Source of the DNA: an uncultured Lachnospiraceae bacterium
GTDB taxonomy: Bacteria; Bacillota; Clostridia; Lachnospirales; Lachnospiraceae
Direction: 5' to 3'
Length of the DNA stretch: 64,000 nt
NCBI GenBank assembly: GCA_910583965.1
Contig: CAJUAE010000009.1
Span: 911 to 64,910 of the forward strand
Shown one piece after another: positions 5,928-55,735 of this stretch; the first letter of the stretch is position 1, and each line of letters begins with the position of its first letter. A program made the position numbers and the translations under genes. The notes under the pieces were generated by a model. The model saw only the letters and a program-made list of their open reading frames with translations. It searched no databases and was not told the origin of the DNA.

Positions 5928-7694
5928 ATGAAAAATTTTGCATCGAATAAGGATATTCTTAAAAAAGTATTAAATCATATTGGAAAATACAAAATTTTCT
6001 TGTTTTTTTCCGTTGCACTTGCGGCGATTTCGGTAATACTTACCTTATATATACCAATTTTAACAGGTGAGGCAGTTGATTGCATTCTTGGTCCTAATGC
6101 TGTAGATTTTGATGGGATTTGGGATATACTAAAGAAGATGGCAGTTATTATTGTATTGACAGCAGTGGTACAGTGGGTTATGAATACTTGTAACAATAAA
6201 ATTGCCTATCAAGTTGTGCGTGACGTGCGTGACGAGGCATTTAAAAAATTGCAAATATTACCACTTAAATACATTGATGGACATTCTCACGGAGACATTG
6301 TAAGCCGTGTGATTGCAGATGTGGATCAGTTTTCTGATGGTTTGTTAATGGGTTTTACACAGCTTTTTACAGGTGTAGTGACAATTATTGGAACCTTGAT
6401 TTTTATGTTTTCCATCAATGTGTCAACAACAATTGTTGTGGTAATTTTGACGCCGCTTTCCTTTTTTATTGCGGGATTTATCGCGAAACGAACATTTAGT
6501 ATGTCTAAGCTTCAGTCGGAGACGCGCGGAGAGCAGACAGCATTGATAGACGAGATGATTGGCAATGAGAAGGTGGTAAAAGCGTTTGGACATGAGCCGC
6601 AGGTGATGGAACAGTTTACTGAAATCAATGACCGTCTGCAAAAGGCCAGTGTCAAGGCAATCTTTTTTTCTTCATTGACCAATCCATGTACACGTTTTGT
6701 CAACAGCCTTGTCTATGCAGGTGTAGGAATCCTCGGTGCATTTCTGGCGATAAACAGATATATCAGCGTGGGACAGCTCACAAGTTTCTTAAGCTATGCC
6801 AACCAGTACACAAAGCCATTTAATGAGATATCTGGTGTTGTGACAGAGTTGCAGACTGCACTGGCGTGTGCAGGTAGGGTATTTGAGTTTATTGAGGAGG
6901 AGCCTCAGATACCAGAGCCAGACAATGCGGCGGTTCTGCAGGCGCCAAGAGGGAATATTGTGATGCAGAACGTTCATTTTTCATACAATCCCGATCAAAA
7001 GTTAATACAGAATTTTAATCTTGAAGTAAAGCCTGGTCAACGTGTGGCGATTGTAGGACCCACTGGATGCGGAAAAACAACTGTCATAAATCTGTTAATG
7101 CGGTTCTATGATGTTAATAGTGGAAGTATTCGGATTGATGGTATTGATATTAGAGATATGACAAGAAAAAGTCTGCGGGAAAGTTTTGGAATGGTTTTGC
7201 AGGAAACTTGGCTTCACGCAGGTACAATACGAGAAAATATTGTGATGGGAAAACCAAATGCCACTGACGACGAAGTGATTGTAGCGGCGAAAGCGGCACA
7301 TGCGCATAGTTTTATCAAACGATTGCCAATGGGATATGACACAGTGATTACAGAAGACGGGGGTAGTCTATCACAAGGACAGAAACAGCTTCTTTGTATT
7401 ACACGCGTAATGCTTTGTCTCCCGCCAATGTTGATTCTTGACGAGGCGACTTCCTCCATTGACACACGCACTGAAATAAAGATTTCGCAGGCGTTTAACA
7501 CAATGATGAAGGGAAGAACAAGTTTTATTGTAGCGCACAGACTTTCTACGATTCGAGAGGCAGATATTATTCTTGTTATGAAAGATGGAAACATCATTGA
7601 ACAGGGAAATCATGAAACGCTTTTAAATAAGAAAGACGGATTTTATGCGAAGCTGTACAACAGTCAATTTGAAGGGAACAGTTCCGCCATATAA
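5928..7694 (+). CDS. ABC exporter half-transporter (TMD-NBD), canonical ATP site
   Basis: Walker A GPTGCGKTT, signature LSQGQKQL, Walker B MLILDEATS. ATG 5928 behind GGAGGGG; the ORF-track start at 5823 reads through the inserted element. Confidence 0.93.
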   Translation: MKNFASNKDILKKVLNHIGKYKIFLFFSVALAAISVILTLYIPILTGEAVDCILGPNAVDFDGIWDILKKMAVIIVLTAVVQWVMNTCNNKIAYQVVRDVRDEAFKKLQILPLKYIDGHSHGDIVSRVIADVDQFSDGLLMGFTQLFTGVVTIIGTLIFMFSINVSTTIVVVILTPLSFFIAGFIAKRTFSMSKLQSETRGEQTALIDEMIGNEKVVKAFGHEPQVMEQFTEINDRLQKASVKAIFFSSLTNPCTRFVNSLVYAGVGILGAFLAINRYISVGQLTSFLSYANQYTKPFNEISGVVTELQTALACAGRVFEFIEEEPQIPEPDNAAVLQAPRGNIVMQNVHFSYNPDQKLIQNFNLEVKPGQRVAIVGPTGCGKTTVINLLMRFYDVNSGSIRIDGIDIRDMTRKSLRESFGMVLQETWLHAGTIRENIVMGKPNATDDEVIVAAKAAHAHSFIKRLPMGYDTVITEDGGSLSQGQKQLLCITRVMLCLPPMLILDEATSSIDTRTEIKISQAFNTMMKGRTSFIVAHRLSTIREADIILVMKDGNIIEQGNHETLLNKKDGFYAKLYNSQFEGNSSAI

Positions 7695-7718
7695 AATTGA
7701 TTGTGCAAATTGTACGCG
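7677..7718 (+). repeat. left arm of a 42-bp inverted repeat (overlaps the last codons and stop of the ABC gene)
   Basis: AACAGTTCCGCCATATAAAATTGATTGTGCAAATTGTACGCG matches the reverse complement of 9051-9092 at 38/42 positions. Confidence 0.85.
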
Positions 7719-7793
7719 GGAGCATGAAATGCGGAGCAATCCGTGGTATCATAGGGGGCAAAATACCTTTTGCCCCCAACATCATATTATTGA
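7717..7793. repeat. partial copy (right ~75 bp) of the 28079-28287 MITE
   Basis: GCGGGAGCATGAAATGCGGAGCAATCCGTGGTATCATA...AAAATACCTTTTGCCCC is nearly identical to 28217-28293. Confidence 0.8.
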
Positions 7794-7906: not shown

Positions 7907-8872
7907 ATGATAAATAGTTTTCTGGATGTATCAGATTATGCAATTCTAGGTTTTGTGGGCGTAGCTTTTGCATATCTGTTGACCAGCTTTCTGCTGGCAG
8001 TTGGAATGAACAAACTTCCAAGGGATCATGGGCGGGAATTTGCCCATGACGGAGGGCTTTCTGCGGGTAAGCCGCGTGGTGCAGGGTTTGTGTTTATCCT
8101 TGTGTTTGTGCTGGTTGCGCTTATATTTGGAAATGCGGACAGGGAGATGATAATCTATTTGATTTTGACAGTCTCTGCAATGATGACAGGATATCTTGAC
8201 GATTGTGCAAAAGTGTCTTGGGGAGAATTGCGCAAAGGACTTTTGGATCTTTTGATTGCAGTTATGACTGCGATTACGGTGGTAAATTTTAATGGAAGTG
8301 ATGTCACAATTGCACTGACAGGGCAGGTTATTGCATTTCCTCCCATCGTATATGGAGTGCTCGCAGTAATTTTGGTATGGGGTTCTATCAATGTGACAAA
8401 CTGTGCGGATGGGGTGGATGGTCTCTCTGGCACACTGACCAGTATCACGCTGTTTACGATTTATATGATTATGAATAGAACGGGAGTGGCACCAGAATTT
8501 TCTTATACTATTTTGCTTTTTATTGCCTGTATTTTGGGTTATTTGTGGTTTAATGCAACCCCAAGCCGTCTTTTGATGGGAGATGCTGGTTCACGGGCGA
8601 TGGGACTTTTTATTGCAGTATCTATTATGAAGACAGGAAGGCCATTTTTATACTTTCTTGTGGCTTTTGTATTGATGGTGGACGGCGGAATAGGACTTGT
8701 GAAGGTATCGCTTTTGCGTTTTTTAAAGATAAAAATACTCACCAAGATACGCACACCGCTTCACGATCATGTGCGTAAAAATATGGGGTGGTCCAACGCA
8801 CAGACTGTATTTAAATTTGCAATTATACAGATTATGATATCGGTGGCAGTAGTGTGGTTGACCGTGTTTTAG
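7907..8872 (+). CDS. MraY/WecA-family polyprenyl-phosphate sugar-phosphate transferase (MraY paralogue)
   Basis: Motifs YLDDCAK, NVTNCADGVDGLSG and MGDAGSRAMG, with 10 or so TM helices. C-terminal PLHDHV sits where MraY has the HHH motif. ATG 7907 behind AAGGAG. Confidence 0.85.
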   Translation: MINSFLDVSDYAILGFVGVAFAYLLTSFLLAVGMNKLPRDHGREFAHDGGLSAGKPRGAGFVFILVFVLVALIFGNADREMIIYLILTVSAMMTGYLDDCAKVSWGELRKGLLDLLIAVMTAITVVNFNGSDVTIALTGQVIAFPPIVYGVLAVILVWGSINVTNCADGVDGLSGTLTSITLFTIYMIMNRTGVAPEFSYTILLFIACILGYLWFNATPSRLLMGDAGSRAMGLFIAVSIMKTGRPFLYFLVAFVLMVDGGIGLVKVSLLRFLKIKILTKIRTPLHDHVRKNMGWSNAQTVFKFAIIQIMISVAVVWLTVF

Positions 8873-8873
8873 G

Positions 8874-8901
8874 GCTGTCTTAGACAGCTCTTTTTGTTTT
8901 T
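8874..8901 (+). terminator. intrinsic terminator
   Basis: GCTGTC-TTA-GACAGC followed by TCTTTTTGTTTTT. Confidence 0.75.
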
Positions 8902-8908
8902 ATGCACA

Positions 8909-8995
8909 GACCCGTGCAGAGGAAATAAGCCGCTAAGGCGGCGCACGGGTCGCGCGGCGAGTCGGGAAAGAGAAACTTTTCTACTCGATTGCACA
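8909..8995 (+). mobile_element. two-hairpin miniature insertion, copy A1, between TGCACA repeats
   Basis: Hairpins GACCCGTGC...GCACGGGTC and CGAGT...ACTCG. TGCACA at 8903-8908 and 8990-8995. Homologous to 31061-31146 and 55278-55366. Confidence 0.7.
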
Positions 8996-9050
8996 CGAGT
9001 GTCCGCCCTATAGAATTAGTTGTACAAATTGCCCTTAGTGAGCAAATTCC

Positions 9051-9092
9051 CACATACAATTTGCACAATTAATTTTGTATGGCGGAACTGTT
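9051..9092 (-). repeat. right arm of the 42-bp inverted repeat
   Basis: The reverse complement AACAGTTCCGCCATACAAAATTAATTGTGCAAATTGTATGTG matches 7677-7718. Confidence 0.85.
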
Positions 9093-19606: not shown

Positions 19607-19656
19607 ATACCAGATGATTCGAGAGAAACTATCTCTGGAATTGTCTGGTATTTTTA
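19607..19656 (+). terminator. intrinsic terminator of the mrp cluster
   Basis: ATACCAGA...TCTGGTAT followed by TTTTT. Confidence 0.7.
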
Positions 19657-19729
19657 TGTACACGGGCGCAGAAAATAGGTCACTAAAATAGTATATGGGA
19701 GCGACGAGTAAAAGAATGAGCAAAAAAGA

Positions 19730-19758
19730 TTGACATATATAGACAATCGATATATAAT
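19730..19758 (+). promoter_or_regulatory. consensus SigA promoter TTGACA-17-TATAAT
   Basis: TTGACA 19730-19735 and TATAAT 19753-19758, upstream of the padR-like gene. Confidence 0.7.
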
Positions 19759-21650: not shown

Positions 21651-21683
21651 CCCCCTAACAGTTATAATCGTTAGGGGGTTTTT
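21651..21683 (+). terminator. intrinsic terminator
   Basis: CCCCCTAAC-loop-GTTAGGGGG followed by TTTTT. Confidence 0.8.
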
Positions 21684-21727
21684 ATGCACACGGACGCACA
21701 CGAATACCCAAGTGAAATTTGTCAGTA
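21683..21727 (+). repeat. uninterrupted post-terminator box (empty site of the two-hairpin insertion)
   Basis: TATGCACACGGACGCACACGAATACCCAAGTGAAATTTGTCAG. It matches the sequence flanking the insertions at 8901, 31053 and 55270. Confidence 0.7.
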
Positions 21728-21773
21728 ATATCTTGTAGGTTAAATACAATATAATTTAAAGAGACAATCCCAA

Positions 21774-28078: not shown

Positions 28079-28287
28079 ATGATACCAGGGTCAAAAGGTC
28101 AAGAAATCCGATGCAAGCTTGCTTGCAAGAGGATTTTTGAACTTGGGACCCGCAAAAACACCGAAAAGTAGCCATTTTTCACAGAAAAATGAGCGAATTT
28201 GAGGTGTTTTAGGATTGCGGGAGCATGAAATGCGGAGCAATCCGTGGTATCATAAAAGGTAAAATACCTTTTTGCCCCTGGTATCAT
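28079..28287. mobile_element. 209-bp MITE with ~20-bp terminal inverted repeats
   Basis: ATGATACCAGGGTCAAAAGGT at the left end; the reverse complement of the right end is ATGATACCAGGGGCAAAAAGGT. Internal palindrome GCAAGCTTGC. A partial copy lies at 7717-7793. Confidence 0.75.
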
Positions 28288-30600: not shown

Positions 30601-30998
30601 AGAAAATGGCGATTATTGCGGCAGCAGTGGCAGGTAGTGTGCTGACAGCCGGAAATATGAGTGGCTGCGGTGGAGCACAGACAAACAATCCAGATTCCTA
30701 TGTGGGCGGTGTCGTTAATGAGATTACAACACAGGCGGTCGATGAACTAAGGAAAGCTTTTACCAGCGAGGTCAGTGATTTTTTTGCTAATGATGATCTT
30801 GCAAAATCCCTTGGTATTAGCGCTGAAGAACAAGGTCAAATTGAGGATTCGATTAAAACTTACATTCGCGATTACAATATGGATGAGGAGAAGTTGCGTG
30901 AGGCAAAAGAATCGCTTGAACAGCTTCTTAAAAATGCAAAAGACTTTTCGGCAGATGAATTACAGGGAAAGATATCAGAAGTTTTTGGTGGAGAATAA
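30597..30998 (+). CDS. small lipoprotein, 133 aa
   Basis: GTG 30597 overlaps the upstream stop (GTGA) and lies 9 nt after AGGAGG. Signal peptide with lipobox-like NMSGC. Confidence 0.6.
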   Translation: MKKMAIIAAAVAGSVLTAGNMSGCGGAQTNNPDSYVGGVVNEITTQAVDELRKAFTSEVSDFFANDDLAKSLGISAEEQGQIEDSIKTYIRDYNMDEEKLREAKESLEQLLKNAKDFSADELQGKISEVFGGE

Positions 30999-31012
30999 GA
31001 GAGATTAAAAAT

Positions 31013-31052
31013 CGTGTGTAAAGAGCTTACTTCTTTGCACGCGGTTTTCTTT
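31013..31052 (+). terminator. intrinsic terminator
   Basis: CGTGTGTAAAGA...TCTTTGCACGCG (with G-U pairs) followed by GTTTTCTTTT. Confidence 0.65.
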
Positions 31053-31060
31053 TATGCACA

Positions 31061-31146
31061 GACCCATGCAGAGGAAATAAGCCGCTAAGGCGGCGCACGG
31101 GTCGTGCGGCGAGTAGGGGAAGCAACCTTCCCTACTCGATTGCACA
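31061..31146 (+). mobile_element. two-hairpin miniature insertion, copy A2 (best preserved)
   Basis: Left hairpin 31061-31103 and right hairpin 31110-31138 (CGAGTAGGGGAAG-CAAC-CTTCCCTACTCG). TGCACA at 31055-31060 and 31141-31146. Confidence 0.75.
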
Positions 31147-31427
31147 CGGACACCCAAGTAAAATTTATTAGTTTCTGCTGACAGGTGCTCAGTGCGCGAA
31201 CGCGGAAAGAAAAATATAACTAAAGTTGCCTATACTGAAAAATATATAATAGGAAAAAATTCCTGGATTTGATTGTTTTTTATTGTCTAATTGGTCAACA
31301 TAACTAAAAAGTTATGTAAATTTGCACAATTTGGAAAATAAGCATTGATTTATAAAAATACATATGCTACTATTTATAAAAAGTAAATAAACTTGGAAAG
31401 GAATAAGATTTAAGTATTTTTCACAAT

Positions 31428-39023: not shown

Positions 39024-39167
39024 CATGGGGGAGTTTGTGTGAAATCAAAGATTTCACACCTTCTGATTTGAGTGCCCGTAAAAGCGGGCAGATGGGAGTT
39101 CGTGTGAAATTAAAATTTCACATATTCTGATTTGAGTGCCCGCAAAAGCGGGCAGATGGGAGTTTGT
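39024..39167 (+). repeat. tandem 64-bp double-hairpin module (2.2 units), family C
   Basis: Hairpin A GTGTGAAATCAAAGATTTCACAC (39037-39059) with a variant at 39103-39122. Hairpin B TGCCCG-YAAAA-CGGGCA (39073-39090 and 39137-39154). The period is 64 bp. Confidence 0.85.
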
Positions 39168-39650
39168 ATGAGAGAACAAATTTTAGCAATTATAGAAAAA
39201 AATAGTAGGATTGATCTGCATGAGCTTGCAGTGATATTGGGTATGGAGGAAACAGATGTTGTCAATGAAATGGAACAAATGGAAAAAGAGGGGATTATCT
39301 GCGGATATCATACTCTGATTGACTGGGAAAAGACATCGGTGGAGAAAGTAAATGCTTTGATAGAAGTGCGTGTGACTCCGCAGCGCGGGAAAGGTTTTGA
39401 TAGTATTGCAGAGCGCATCTATAAATACCCAGAGGTGCATGCGGTATACTTGATTTCAGGTGGGTATGATTTGCTTGTAAGCCTAGAAGGAAAGACGCTC
39501 AAAGAAGTTTCAAATTTTGTGTCAGATAAGCTTTCGACTTTGGAGACTGTCATCAGCACAGCAACACATTTTATTCTGAAAAAGTACAAAGACCATGGTA
39601 CGGTTTTGGATAGAAAACAGTCTGACGAAAGGATGCAGGTGACACCATGA
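39168..39650 (+). CDS. Lrp/AsnC family transcriptional regulator
   Basis: HTH_AsnC N-terminus (ILAIIEKNSRIDLHELAVILGMEETDV) plus an RAM/AsnC_trans_reg domain. ATG 39168 behind GGGAG. Confidence 0.88.
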   Translation: MREQILAIIEKNSRIDLHELAVILGMEETDVVNEMEQMEKEGIICGYHTLIDWEKTSVEKVNALIEVRVTPQRGKGFDSIAERIYKYPEVHAVYLISGGYDLLVSLEGKTLKEVSNFVSDKLSTLETVISTATHFILKKYKDHGTVLDRKQSDERMQVTP

Positions 39651-43147: not shown

Positions 43148-43181
43148 AAAAGATGAGTGCTCTGACACTCATCTTTTTTAT
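43148..43181. terminator. intrinsic (probably bidirectional) terminator
   Basis: AAAAAGATGAGTG-CTCTGA-CACTCATCTTTTTT lies between convergent genes. It is followed by a variant of the post-terminator box, TATGTATACGGCACTC. Confidence 0.8.
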
Positions 43182-43264
43182 GTATACGGCACTCAGGGAA
43201 AATCTTTCTCCTTCGATTGCATTACTTTATGCACAAACAGTATGTTACTGAATCCATGTATTTT

Positions 43265-54792: not shown

Positions 54793-55176
54793 ATGGCAGG
54801 ACAGAACAAACAAAACTTGGAACAAAATAATTCCGCTCCACAGCGTCAACTGCGAGGATTGTATTCTAAGGTCAATATTTCAGTTAAGTCACTGAATATT
54901 ATTATTATTGTATTGGCTGTGGCGCTTGTGGTTTGTATGGCAATCGGTGTATCTAACGCAGGATTTACGGTTCAATTTGATTCTCTAGGTGGAACGACAG
55001 TGGAAAGTCAGAAACATATGTACGGAGAATTGATTATGGCACCTGTTCCGCCCACGCGAGAAGGTTATTTATTTGATGGCTGGTATTTGGACCAGAGTAC
55101 AACGAGACCTTGGAACTTAGAGAATGATGTTGTTACAGAATCTATGACATTATATGCAGGATGGCGGTTGCAATAA
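54793..55176 (+). CDS. single-pass membrane protein with one Listeria-Bacteroides (InlB B-repeat/Flg_new) repeat
   Basis: TM (IIIIVLAVALVVCMAIG) followed by FTVQFDSLGGTTVESQ...REGYLFDGWYLDQSTTRPWNLENDVVTESMTLYAGW. It starts 4 nt after the permease stop. Confidence 0.75.
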   Translation: MAGQNKQNLEQNNSAPQRQLRGLYSKVNISVKSLNIIIIVLAVALVVCMAIGVSNAGFTVQFDSLGGTTVESQKHMYGELIMAPVPPTREGYLFDGWYLDQSTTRPWNLENDVVTESMTLYAGWRLQ

Positions 55177-55225: not shown

Positions 55226-55271
55226 AAGACTATGAGATCTGCAATGGGAATCATAGTCTTTTTCTTTTTTA
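55226..55271 (+). terminator. intrinsic terminator
   Basis: AAGACTATGA-loop-TCATAGTCTT followed by TTTCTTTTTT. Confidence 0.75.
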
Positions 55272-55277
55272 TGCACA

Positions 55278-55366
55278 GACCCATGCAGAGGAAATAAGCC
55301 ACTAAAGCGGCGCACGAGTCGTGCGGCGAGTAGGAAGAAGATAAACCTTCCCTGCTCGATTGCACA
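55278..55366 (+). mobile_element. two-hairpin miniature insertion, copy A3
   Basis: TGCACA at 55272-55277 and 55361-55366. Same order of segments as A1 and A2, with point differences that weaken the stems. Confidence 0.7.
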
Positions 55367-55735
55367 AGAGCACCCAAATGAAATTTGTCAGCAGAAGCTG
55401 ATGGGTGTCCGGCGCGTGAGTAGGGAAAAGAAGTCTTATTTGGTGTGCATCAATTGTAACAAAATCGTTACTTTTCACACCCGCGTCATGCACTTGCTGT
55501 ATGGTGTCGGATCCAGCGCCAAAATGCTTGTTTTTAGGCATTGTGTGTGCATCCATTGTTGCAATTCATACCGAATGTTCGTAAATCGGTGCAAAATCTG
55601 ACGTTGGTGTGAATTGTAACACAAAATCAGTTCCACAATTAATGTTACTAAGAAGCATTATTGAAAAATTACAGTTTATAGTTTATAGTAAAAGCGAGTA
55701 GATAGTTCCGAATTGTATAGAGACGAGGATAAACA

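Follow-up and report, generated by a model that had tools for sequence, protein, structure and literature searches.

Two-hairpin DNA repeats docked behind terminators in Lachnospiraceae of the mouse gut, an apparently undescribed family

The window analysed here, a stretch of 64,000 nucleotides from an uncultured Lachnospiraceae bacterium, carries three copies of a two-hairpin sequence on its + strand (8909-8995, 31061-31146 and 55278-55366), which raises the question of what these copies are and how each came to lie behind the end of a gene. The initial annotation regarded them as inserts placed at TGCACA inside a conserved box behind a terminator, and its description of the copies themselves proved accurate. 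A 23-nt core pattern matched three times in the window against 0.00 expected. Every copy is preceded by a gene-end hairpin with a T-run running into TATGCACA, and ATGCACA is entered from hairpin and T-run in all three cases; the left hairpin is GACCCRTGC..GCACGGGTC enclosing GCCGC-TAAG-GCGGC, the right hairpin is CGAGTAGGG..CCCTACTCG, and the 3' end of each copy is CGATTGCACA. Folding reproduced both hairpins, their z-scores ranging from -3.5 to -4.9. The preceding genes are a MraY-like gene ending at 8872, an ORF of 133 aa ending at 30998 and an ORF with a Flg_new domain ending at 55176.

The three copies belong as units to a larger and apparently undescribed family of DNA repeats with two hairpins, found in Lachnospiraceae of the mouse gut. 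When one genome per species was scanned, 18 loci came up, all from Lachnospiraceae and mostly of mouse-gut origin, and a metagenome scan added 29 more from Lachnospiraceae or gut assemblies; overall, about 50 arrays were collected from several Lachnospiraceae genomes and metagenomes. Copy number varied strongly among related species, and covariance-model matches numbered 0 in L024, L035 and L036. The Rfam 15 covariance models contained no family for the repeat at either gathering or permissive thresholds, giving only chance-level matches over copy 2, and no description of it turned up in the literature, which was searched both by topic and with sequence strings. Plasmid and phage collections held no match to the repeat, and viral contigs held no H1 match (H1 is the left hairpin, H2 the right one), their three H2-junction matches being due to chance and accompanied by no model match. 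In addition, Logan short-read contigs of the window's own strain (L022, L023) end within or just before the third array, which indicates that the repeats break short-read assemblies.

The unit is non-coding, about 87 nt long, and reads from 5' to 3' as GCACA, H1, a GCGCGG linker, H2 and ATT. H1 consists of a 9-bp outer stem, a conserved 11-nt bulge on the 5' side (ARAGGAAATAW), a 5-bp inner stem and a tetraloop, and H2 is CGAGTAGGGAAG-loop-CTTCCCTACTCG; the two hairpins are unlike in sequence and architecture, while the H1 hairpins of A and B units share one architecture. H1 has at least five stem variants, namely A (GACCCGTGC / GCACGGGTC), B' (GGACGCGG / CCGCGTCC), B'' (GGGCACCC / GGGTGCCC), B''' (GGGCGTC / GACGCCC) and one more type in L015. 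Pairing and bulge are kept in all of them, the bulge being ARAGGAAATAW or, in one subtype, AAGTGAAATTTGT. The three window copies are of type A. Unit 1 spans 8904-8990 (+) with a covariance-model score of 104.8 bits and is made up of GCACA (8904-8908), H1 (8909-8951, bulge AGAGGAAATAA), linker (8952-8957), H2 (8958-8987) and ATT (8988-8990). Unit 2 spans 31056-31141 (+; H1 31061-31103, H2 31110-31138; 105.1 bits), and unit 3 spans 55273-55361 (+; H1 55278-55320, H2 55327-55358; 90.6 bits).

Covariation across the family supported these stems. When 27 units were aligned with MAFFT, pairing held in 89.9% of cells against 34-46% with the partners slid, and 20 of 31 pairs showed double changes; in 43 model-aligned units the corresponding values were 94.4% against 37-48% and 21 of 25 pairs, and the observed values were reached by 0 of 500 shuffles. 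The earlier impression that differences between copies weaken the stems without compensation holds among the three window copies only, and compensation is abundant across the family. On the strand carrying the T-run, H2 showed 53 G.U against 13 A.C pairs, and H1 showed no G.U excess (17 against 22 A.C); judged from the sequences, the excess in H2 points to one active strand. The GTAG of H2 (CGA-GTAG-GG) was base-paired with CTAC in 95% of cells. An extension of H2 through pairing of the linker with TTGCAC was rejected, its pairs being mostly G.U and C.A, and a minus-strand inner H1 hairpin with TTATTTCC that had been flagged as terminator-like was judged a by-product of the bulge sequence.

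The boundaries of the unit can be read from the array ends. Arrays with an intact last unit end in CTCGATT, followed by unrelated AT-rich flank without GCACA (L014, L015, L005, L016, L055), the final motif of the L001 array is the variant CTCGGTT, with ATGC behind it, and internal unit junctions read CTCGATT|GCACA. The simplest phasing that follows from these junctions and ends has the element run from GCACA to CTCGATT and sit behind TTTAT. The TGCACA reported on both sides does flank all three window copies, but its T is the last T of the target or comes from the ATT of the preceding unit, the rest being the unit's own GCACA, and the suggested 6-bp TGCACA target duplication is excluded by array ends at which CTCGATT is followed by unique flank. 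Direct repeats at the ends are T-rich and vary from 3 to 10 bp (TTA, TTAT, TTATGC, TTTTTTAATG), which makes a fixed-length target duplication unlikely. Terminal inverted repeats are absent, the 5' end GCACAGACCC being unrelated to the reverse complement of the 3' end (AATCGAGTAGGG). A classical MITE was rejected because the element has neither inverted ends nor a fixed-length duplication.

The box in which the copies were thought to be inserted turned out to belong to the same family. It is a decayed B-type unit with its own H1 and H2, specifically of the H1 subtype with the AAGTGAAATTTGT bulge, intact copies of which occur in L055, L052 and L048, rather than conserved host sequence; since the box is another unit, the apparent insertion inside it amounts to the stacking of units. 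The box (CGGACACCCAAGTAAAATTT...) had been placed after every copy, and it is present only after copies 2 and 3, where the 3' sequence was itself found to be repeated; copy 1 is followed by the 13-nt remnant CGAGTGTCCGCCC. Thus, unit 1 is succeeded by the remnant of an older unit (GCACA plus CGAGTGTCCGCCC, 8991-9008, +), unit 2 by an older decayed B-type unit (31142-31235, +), and unit 3 by a second, partly decayed unit of type B (55362-55444, +) with 79% identity to the B consensus, 18.2 bits and E = 0.0065. A fourth window site (21696-21740) has the box sequence without an A unit; it is part of one of the three decayed family sites that the window holds in addition to the three copies, at 19651-19730, 21679-21740 and 43174-43235, all on the + strand. 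With its hairpin, the first of these covers 19610-19730 and continues with TTTTTAT, GTACA and a degraded B-like unit (CGGGCGCAGAAAATAGG...CGAGTAAAAG); the second covers 21651-21740, where a hairpin (21651-21678) is followed by TTTTTAT, GCACA, CGGAC, GCACA and a degraded B unit (CGAATACCCAAGTGAAATTTGTCAG...); and the third covers 43152-43235, where a hairpin (43152-43173) is followed by TTTTTTAT, GTATA and an internally deleted B-like unit ending in CTTCGATT.

Every array examined starts directly after a hairpin, T(4-7) and AT (rarely GT or AC). All 21 pattern-ascertained copies, plus all later-found ones, lie in arrays starting after a hairpin, T-run and AT/GT; four pattern matches were preceded by another unit, and their arrays themselves begin after hairpin, T-run and AT. 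The docking hairpin is usually the intrinsic terminator of a co-oriented upstream gene, and for nearly all arrays the gene upstream points the same way; in L015, two arrays are antisense to their neighbours, one of them beside the other face of a bidirectional terminator. In the window, docking site 1 (8871-8903, +) comprises the terminator hairpin of the MraY-like gene (8871-8891) with T-run and AT (8891-8903), and this hairpin is also kept in the relatives L031-34, L072 and L025-27. Docking site 2 (31008-31055, +) has its terminator hairpin at 31008-31048 and docking site 3 (55227-55272, +) at 55227-55259, each followed by T-run and AT, and the hairpin of site 3 is conserved in L038-40. The window has 300 T-run+AT sites; units occupied 6 of the 20 that lie next to a stable hairpin and 0 of the 280 others (Fisher p ~4e-8). 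TGCACA was not borne out as the insertion target, its 65 occurrences in the window showing no enrichment over 59.8 expected and 61 other TGCACA sites having no unit, and exact TTTTATGCACA matches fell at family sites in 4 of 4 cases. A fixed short neighbour as previously proposed does exist, but it is hairpin, T-run and AT instead of TGCACA. The 3' flanks of the arrays are unrelated to each other, and specificity thus resides on the 5' side only. Several arrays abut the ribosome-binding site of the next gene with no room for a promoter (L011, L012, L006), and one lies within the glgC leader, downstream of the promoter. We also observed that the 5' arm of a truncated H2, GTAGGGGAGG, is an apparent ribosome-binding site 8 nt before the next ATG (L011 ~250-270; also L071 and L076); the gene that follows in L011 looks like aroB by its N-terminus.

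Within arrays, units are arranged only head-to-tail, in orders such as B-A, A-B-A-B, A-A' and B-B-B; a strict A/B alternation was dropped once the metagenome data were added. Neighbouring units in L006 have identical H2 and different H1, internal deletions are frequent in the family (L010, L051, window 43174), and the A-type H1 is near-identical across species with proteins only 80-90% identical. The arrays are also polar. For 26 unique A units found by pattern, the unit upstream of an intact A unit was intact in 6 of 6 cases (84-95% identity to consensus), and a recognisable downstream unit was intact in 0 of 15 (all at most 79%; Fisher p ~2e-5), where the noise floor of consensus identity is about 50-64% and only values of at least 70% were interpreted. 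Three B-first arrays, found independently by model, showed the same polarity, and the asymmetry cannot be produced by ascertainment via an intact A unit. The age gradient is that terminator-proximal units are the freshest and distal ones are decayed.

Comparisons among relatives revealed different units at the same sites. Behind the same MraY-like terminator, the window has an A unit and L031 has a B'' unit plus a 13-nt truncated A, with flanks ~98-99% identical and MraY-like proteins 96% identical between the two lineages. The glgC leader holds an A unit in L014 and a B' unit in L077, whose boundaries (TTTTTTATGCGCA and CGATT|AAATATA) are identical and whose GlgC proteins agree at 98%; the segment as a whole is absent from lineages at 93-95% protein identity. 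A 65-nt extra segment in L077, considered as a further repeat, is unique sequence with a strong hairpin and T-run. Upstream of the histidine kinase gene, a 91%-identical relative (L038) has the terminator hairpin and a 13-nt B-like remnant, with no ATGCACA after the T-run, and more distant orthologous sites keep decayed units. Three sites were searched for a clean pair of filled and empty versions; each held a unit, a remnant or a rearrangement, and consequently independent insertion and differential unit-precise loss are not separable. Two other features of these regions were recorded. The aconitase stop codon is directly followed by a lone decayed H2-like hairpin, TAGGGAAGATTTATCTTCCCTATTTGATTGTAC (L014 ~6350-6410; L077 960-1020), which suggests that another array, of great age, lies at the end of that gene, and about 250 nt between the third array and the histidine kinase gene (55445-55690), with repeated GTGTGCATC(A/C)ATTGT motifs, are absent from the 91%-identical L038-40.

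How the units came to dock and stack is best explained, with a probability of roughly 0.55 in our estimation, by single-strand, hairpin-guided insertion 3' of the terminator's TTTAT through an enzyme encoded elsewhere. The unit would be a non-autonomous mobile element whose single strand is pasted precisely 3' of TTTAT without target duplication, by a hairpin-recognising enzyme supplied from elsewhere in the genome, for which an IS200/IS605-type HUH/Y1 transposase would be the best-fitting known class, and each new insertion at one target would shift older units downstream. Stacking at the same target would result in CTCGATT|GCACA junctions and hence in the apparent TGCACA flanks. An IS200/IS605-type derivative had already been suggested; its non-coding, hairpin-bearing and multi-copy nature and its insertion hallmarks fit, but the TGCACA neighbour and the host box fail, and no Y1 gene was found in the sequence searched. 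A Pfam scan of 20 window ORFs detected no transposase, the window being ordinary chromosome, and tblastn with two approximate TnpA queries, of IS200 and IS608, detected no Y1/RAYT gene in a small set of related loci of 655 kb. There is no ORF between H1 and H2 in any copy, no unit pair encloses an ORF, and an ORF beside a truncated unit in L013, considered as a transposase candidate, encodes an ABC ATPase instead. The window + strand is G-rich leading-strand sequence (skew 0.10-0.24), and the G-rich strand carries 27 of 30 arrays, a bias (90%) indistinguishable from gene-strand bias. IS200/IS605 insertion prefers the lagging-strand template (PMC5027513), which the orientation of the arrays fits, confounded as it is with gene orientation. 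Further points run counter to the insertion model: none of the orthologous sites examined was cleanly empty, the same-site swaps could reflect vertical persistence with unit-precise deletions, the polarity could arise from selection on proximal units instead of proximal insertion, H1 is unlike H2 and lacks a G.U excess, and the presumed cleavage point lies just 5 nt ahead of H1.

Selection by the host is the first competitor to be weighed. The units may be structured RNA or DNA modules, transcribed by read-through or as a leader and acting in cis as a 3'-end stabiliser, as an insulator, or through a Shine-Dalgarno-like bulge (AGAGGA/AAAGGA) binding ribosomes or protein; selection would then keep the terminator-near units while distal ones decay. 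Such a role would agree with the strong covariation and conserved bulge, with the sense orientation to the upstream gene in nearly all arrays, with the G.U excess on the H2 sense strand, with the arrays abutting the next ribosome-binding site (L011, L012, L006) and the one in the glgC leader, and with remnants persisting at orthologous sites across species. However, most copies are free to decay and vary from one close strain to another, copy number varies strongly among related species (0 model matches in L024, L035 and L036), a post-terminator position predicts little transcription, at least two arrays are antisense to their neighbours (L015), and no Rfam family matches; we hold a host-selected module to be unlikely. 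Spread without any transposase appears about as unlikely. Here replication would stall at terminator or array hairpins, and copy-choice or short-tract gene conversion would copy, swap and delete whole units through microhomology at the T-run+ATGCACA and H2+ATT junctions. The failure to find a transposase in the 20 window ORFs or in 655 kb of related loci, the unit swaps with identical boundaries at orthologous sites, the end direct repeats varying from 3 to 10 bp, the adjacent L006 units with identical H2 and different H1, and the many internal deletions would all be accommodated, but the colonisation of virgin terminators, the near-identity of A-type H1 across species with 80-90% identical proteins, and the conserved bulge beside covarying stems would be left unexplained.

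The two remaining explanations are much less probable. The version of the initial annotation, in which an 87-bp element (GACCC...CGATTGCACA) sits 3' of TGCACA in a host box or is bounded by a 6-bp TGCACA duplication, draws on the TGCACA flanks of all three window copies, on a site at 21680 that resembles the box without an insert, and on internal junctions that are identical under its phasing. It is very improbable given that the box has an H1 and an H2 itself and occurs elsewhere as an intact repeat unit, that the 61 other window TGCACA sites are unoccupied and not enriched, that single-unit arrays end in CTCGATT and flank without GCACA (L014, L015, L005, L016, L055), and that the near-empty L038 site has no ATGCACA after its T-run. 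The least credible explanation assigns the repeat to the GTAG-REP/BIME family, as a Firmicute representative moved by a RAYT, an option that was also raised at the outset and that fails on two defining features. The GTAG contained in H2, the location downstream of genes and the clustered, BIME-like arrays speak for it, and G.T pairs and stem sub-families occur in REP families too (PMC3733652). However, GTAG is here paired with CTAC inside the H2 stem while the REP tag is unpaired (PMC3733652), the units are head-to-tail only, an arrangement of dimers absent or rare in REP families, and the family has been reported from Proteobacteria, Cyanobacteria, Chloroflexi and PVC and not from Firmicutes (PMC3733652). 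Moreover, no RAYT was found in 655 kb of related loci.

Several known repeats and mobile elements share traits with the family. BOX elements of Streptococcus pneumoniae are likewise modular intergenic repeats with a variable number of sub-units and stable hairpins, but they are unrelated in sequence and not tied to terminator T-runs. To our knowledge, no polarity has been described for them. The hallmarks of IS200/IS605 elements are insertion beside a T-rich pentanucleotide, with specificity on the 5' side, and the lack of both terminal inverted repeats and a target duplication, and both TTTAT and ATTAT are reported targets of clostridial IStrons (PMC4227781). The repeat resembles their PATE-type non-autonomous derivatives in having no inverted ends, subterminal one-strand hairpins and a T-rich target specificity on the 5' side only, and its strand bias, confounded with gene orientation, would be compatible with lagging-template insertion (PMC5027513); in contrast, its two hairpins are unlike whereas IS608 ends carry similar ones, its target is coupled to a terminator hairpin, its stacking is polar and head-to-tail, and several stem variants share one bulge. 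In GTAG REPs, most dimers are head-to-head or tail-to-tail (PMC3733652). The REP/BIME sequences of Proteobacteria, presumably moved by a domesticated HUH transposase, are comparable as short GC-rich hairpins downstream of genes, in modular clusters, with stem sub-families showing compensating changes and G.T pairs; the repeat differs by its 87-nt two-hairpin units, its Firmicute host and its position after the terminator T-run rather than before it. The bcr1 repeats of the Bacillus cereus group, whose mobility is tied to a TTTAT motif at their ends (PMC6542083), are also Firmicute intergenic repeats (100-400 bp) associated with TTTAT, yet they show no sequence similarity, form a single longer unit and have not been reported as polar terminator-docked arrays. 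Docking behind terminators is known from group IIC introns (PMC1702495), which, unlike the 87-nt units, are ribozymes of more than 400 nt with or without a reverse-transcriptase ORF. A group II (IIC) intron or fragment was rejected, since no Rfam intron matched and units of 87 nt cannot be ribozyme introns.

The window holds other repeats and structured elements besides this family. A CRISPR array at 2-1104 has 17 copies of a 30-nt repeat (GATTAATAGAAACATGAGATGTATTGAAAT) at a spacing of 64-67 nt and may extend past the left edge. The only Rfam match in the window is a full Clostridiales-1 RNA (RF01699) at 28080-28252 (+; 124 bits), and 62 nt of its 3' end recur with 90% identity at 7716-7777 (+), just upstream of the MraY-like gene. 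A second interspersed family is represented at 39029-39175 (+) by a 64-nt tandem repeat of 2.2 copies with a GCCCGC-AAAA-GCGGGC hairpin, and its sequence interrupts an A unit in the H1 loop in L065 and L069. In addition, the exact 13-mer AATTTGCACAATT occurs twice (9058-9070 and 31319-31331, +), each time in intergenic DNA downstream of an array, with related TTGTACAA/ATTGTGCAA motifs nearby; with 2 mismatches allowed it was found 12 times against 8.7 expected and is not enriched. It could be an old junction relic, or else a promoter or operator element.

A bolder pair of proposals can also be made, each of them speculative and in our opinion rather unlikely to be right. Terminator hairpin and TTTAT may form a dedicated acquisition site served by an undescribed enzyme reading ARAGGAAATAW, where units would be added only at the terminator-proximal end, by analogy with CRISPR spacers at the leader end; or the proximal units may work as RNA modules that use a bulge resembling a Shine-Dalgarno sequence to adjust read-through or the expression of the next gene. 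If either were true, the family would constitute a terminator-docked, polar cassette system of a kind not described for bacterial repeats.

REP, BOX and bcr repeats shape operon expression, genome rearrangement and assembly quality, and such repeats are poorly charted in gut Firmicutes. If the polarity of the present arrays reflects insertion, they would record successive events at each terminator and would imply a site-specific single-strand insertion activity that reads a terminator hairpin plus TTAT and that could be of use in targeting. Should selection be the cause of the polarity, the proximal unit would be a candidate for a cis-acting RNA element in bacteria that dominate the mouse gut.
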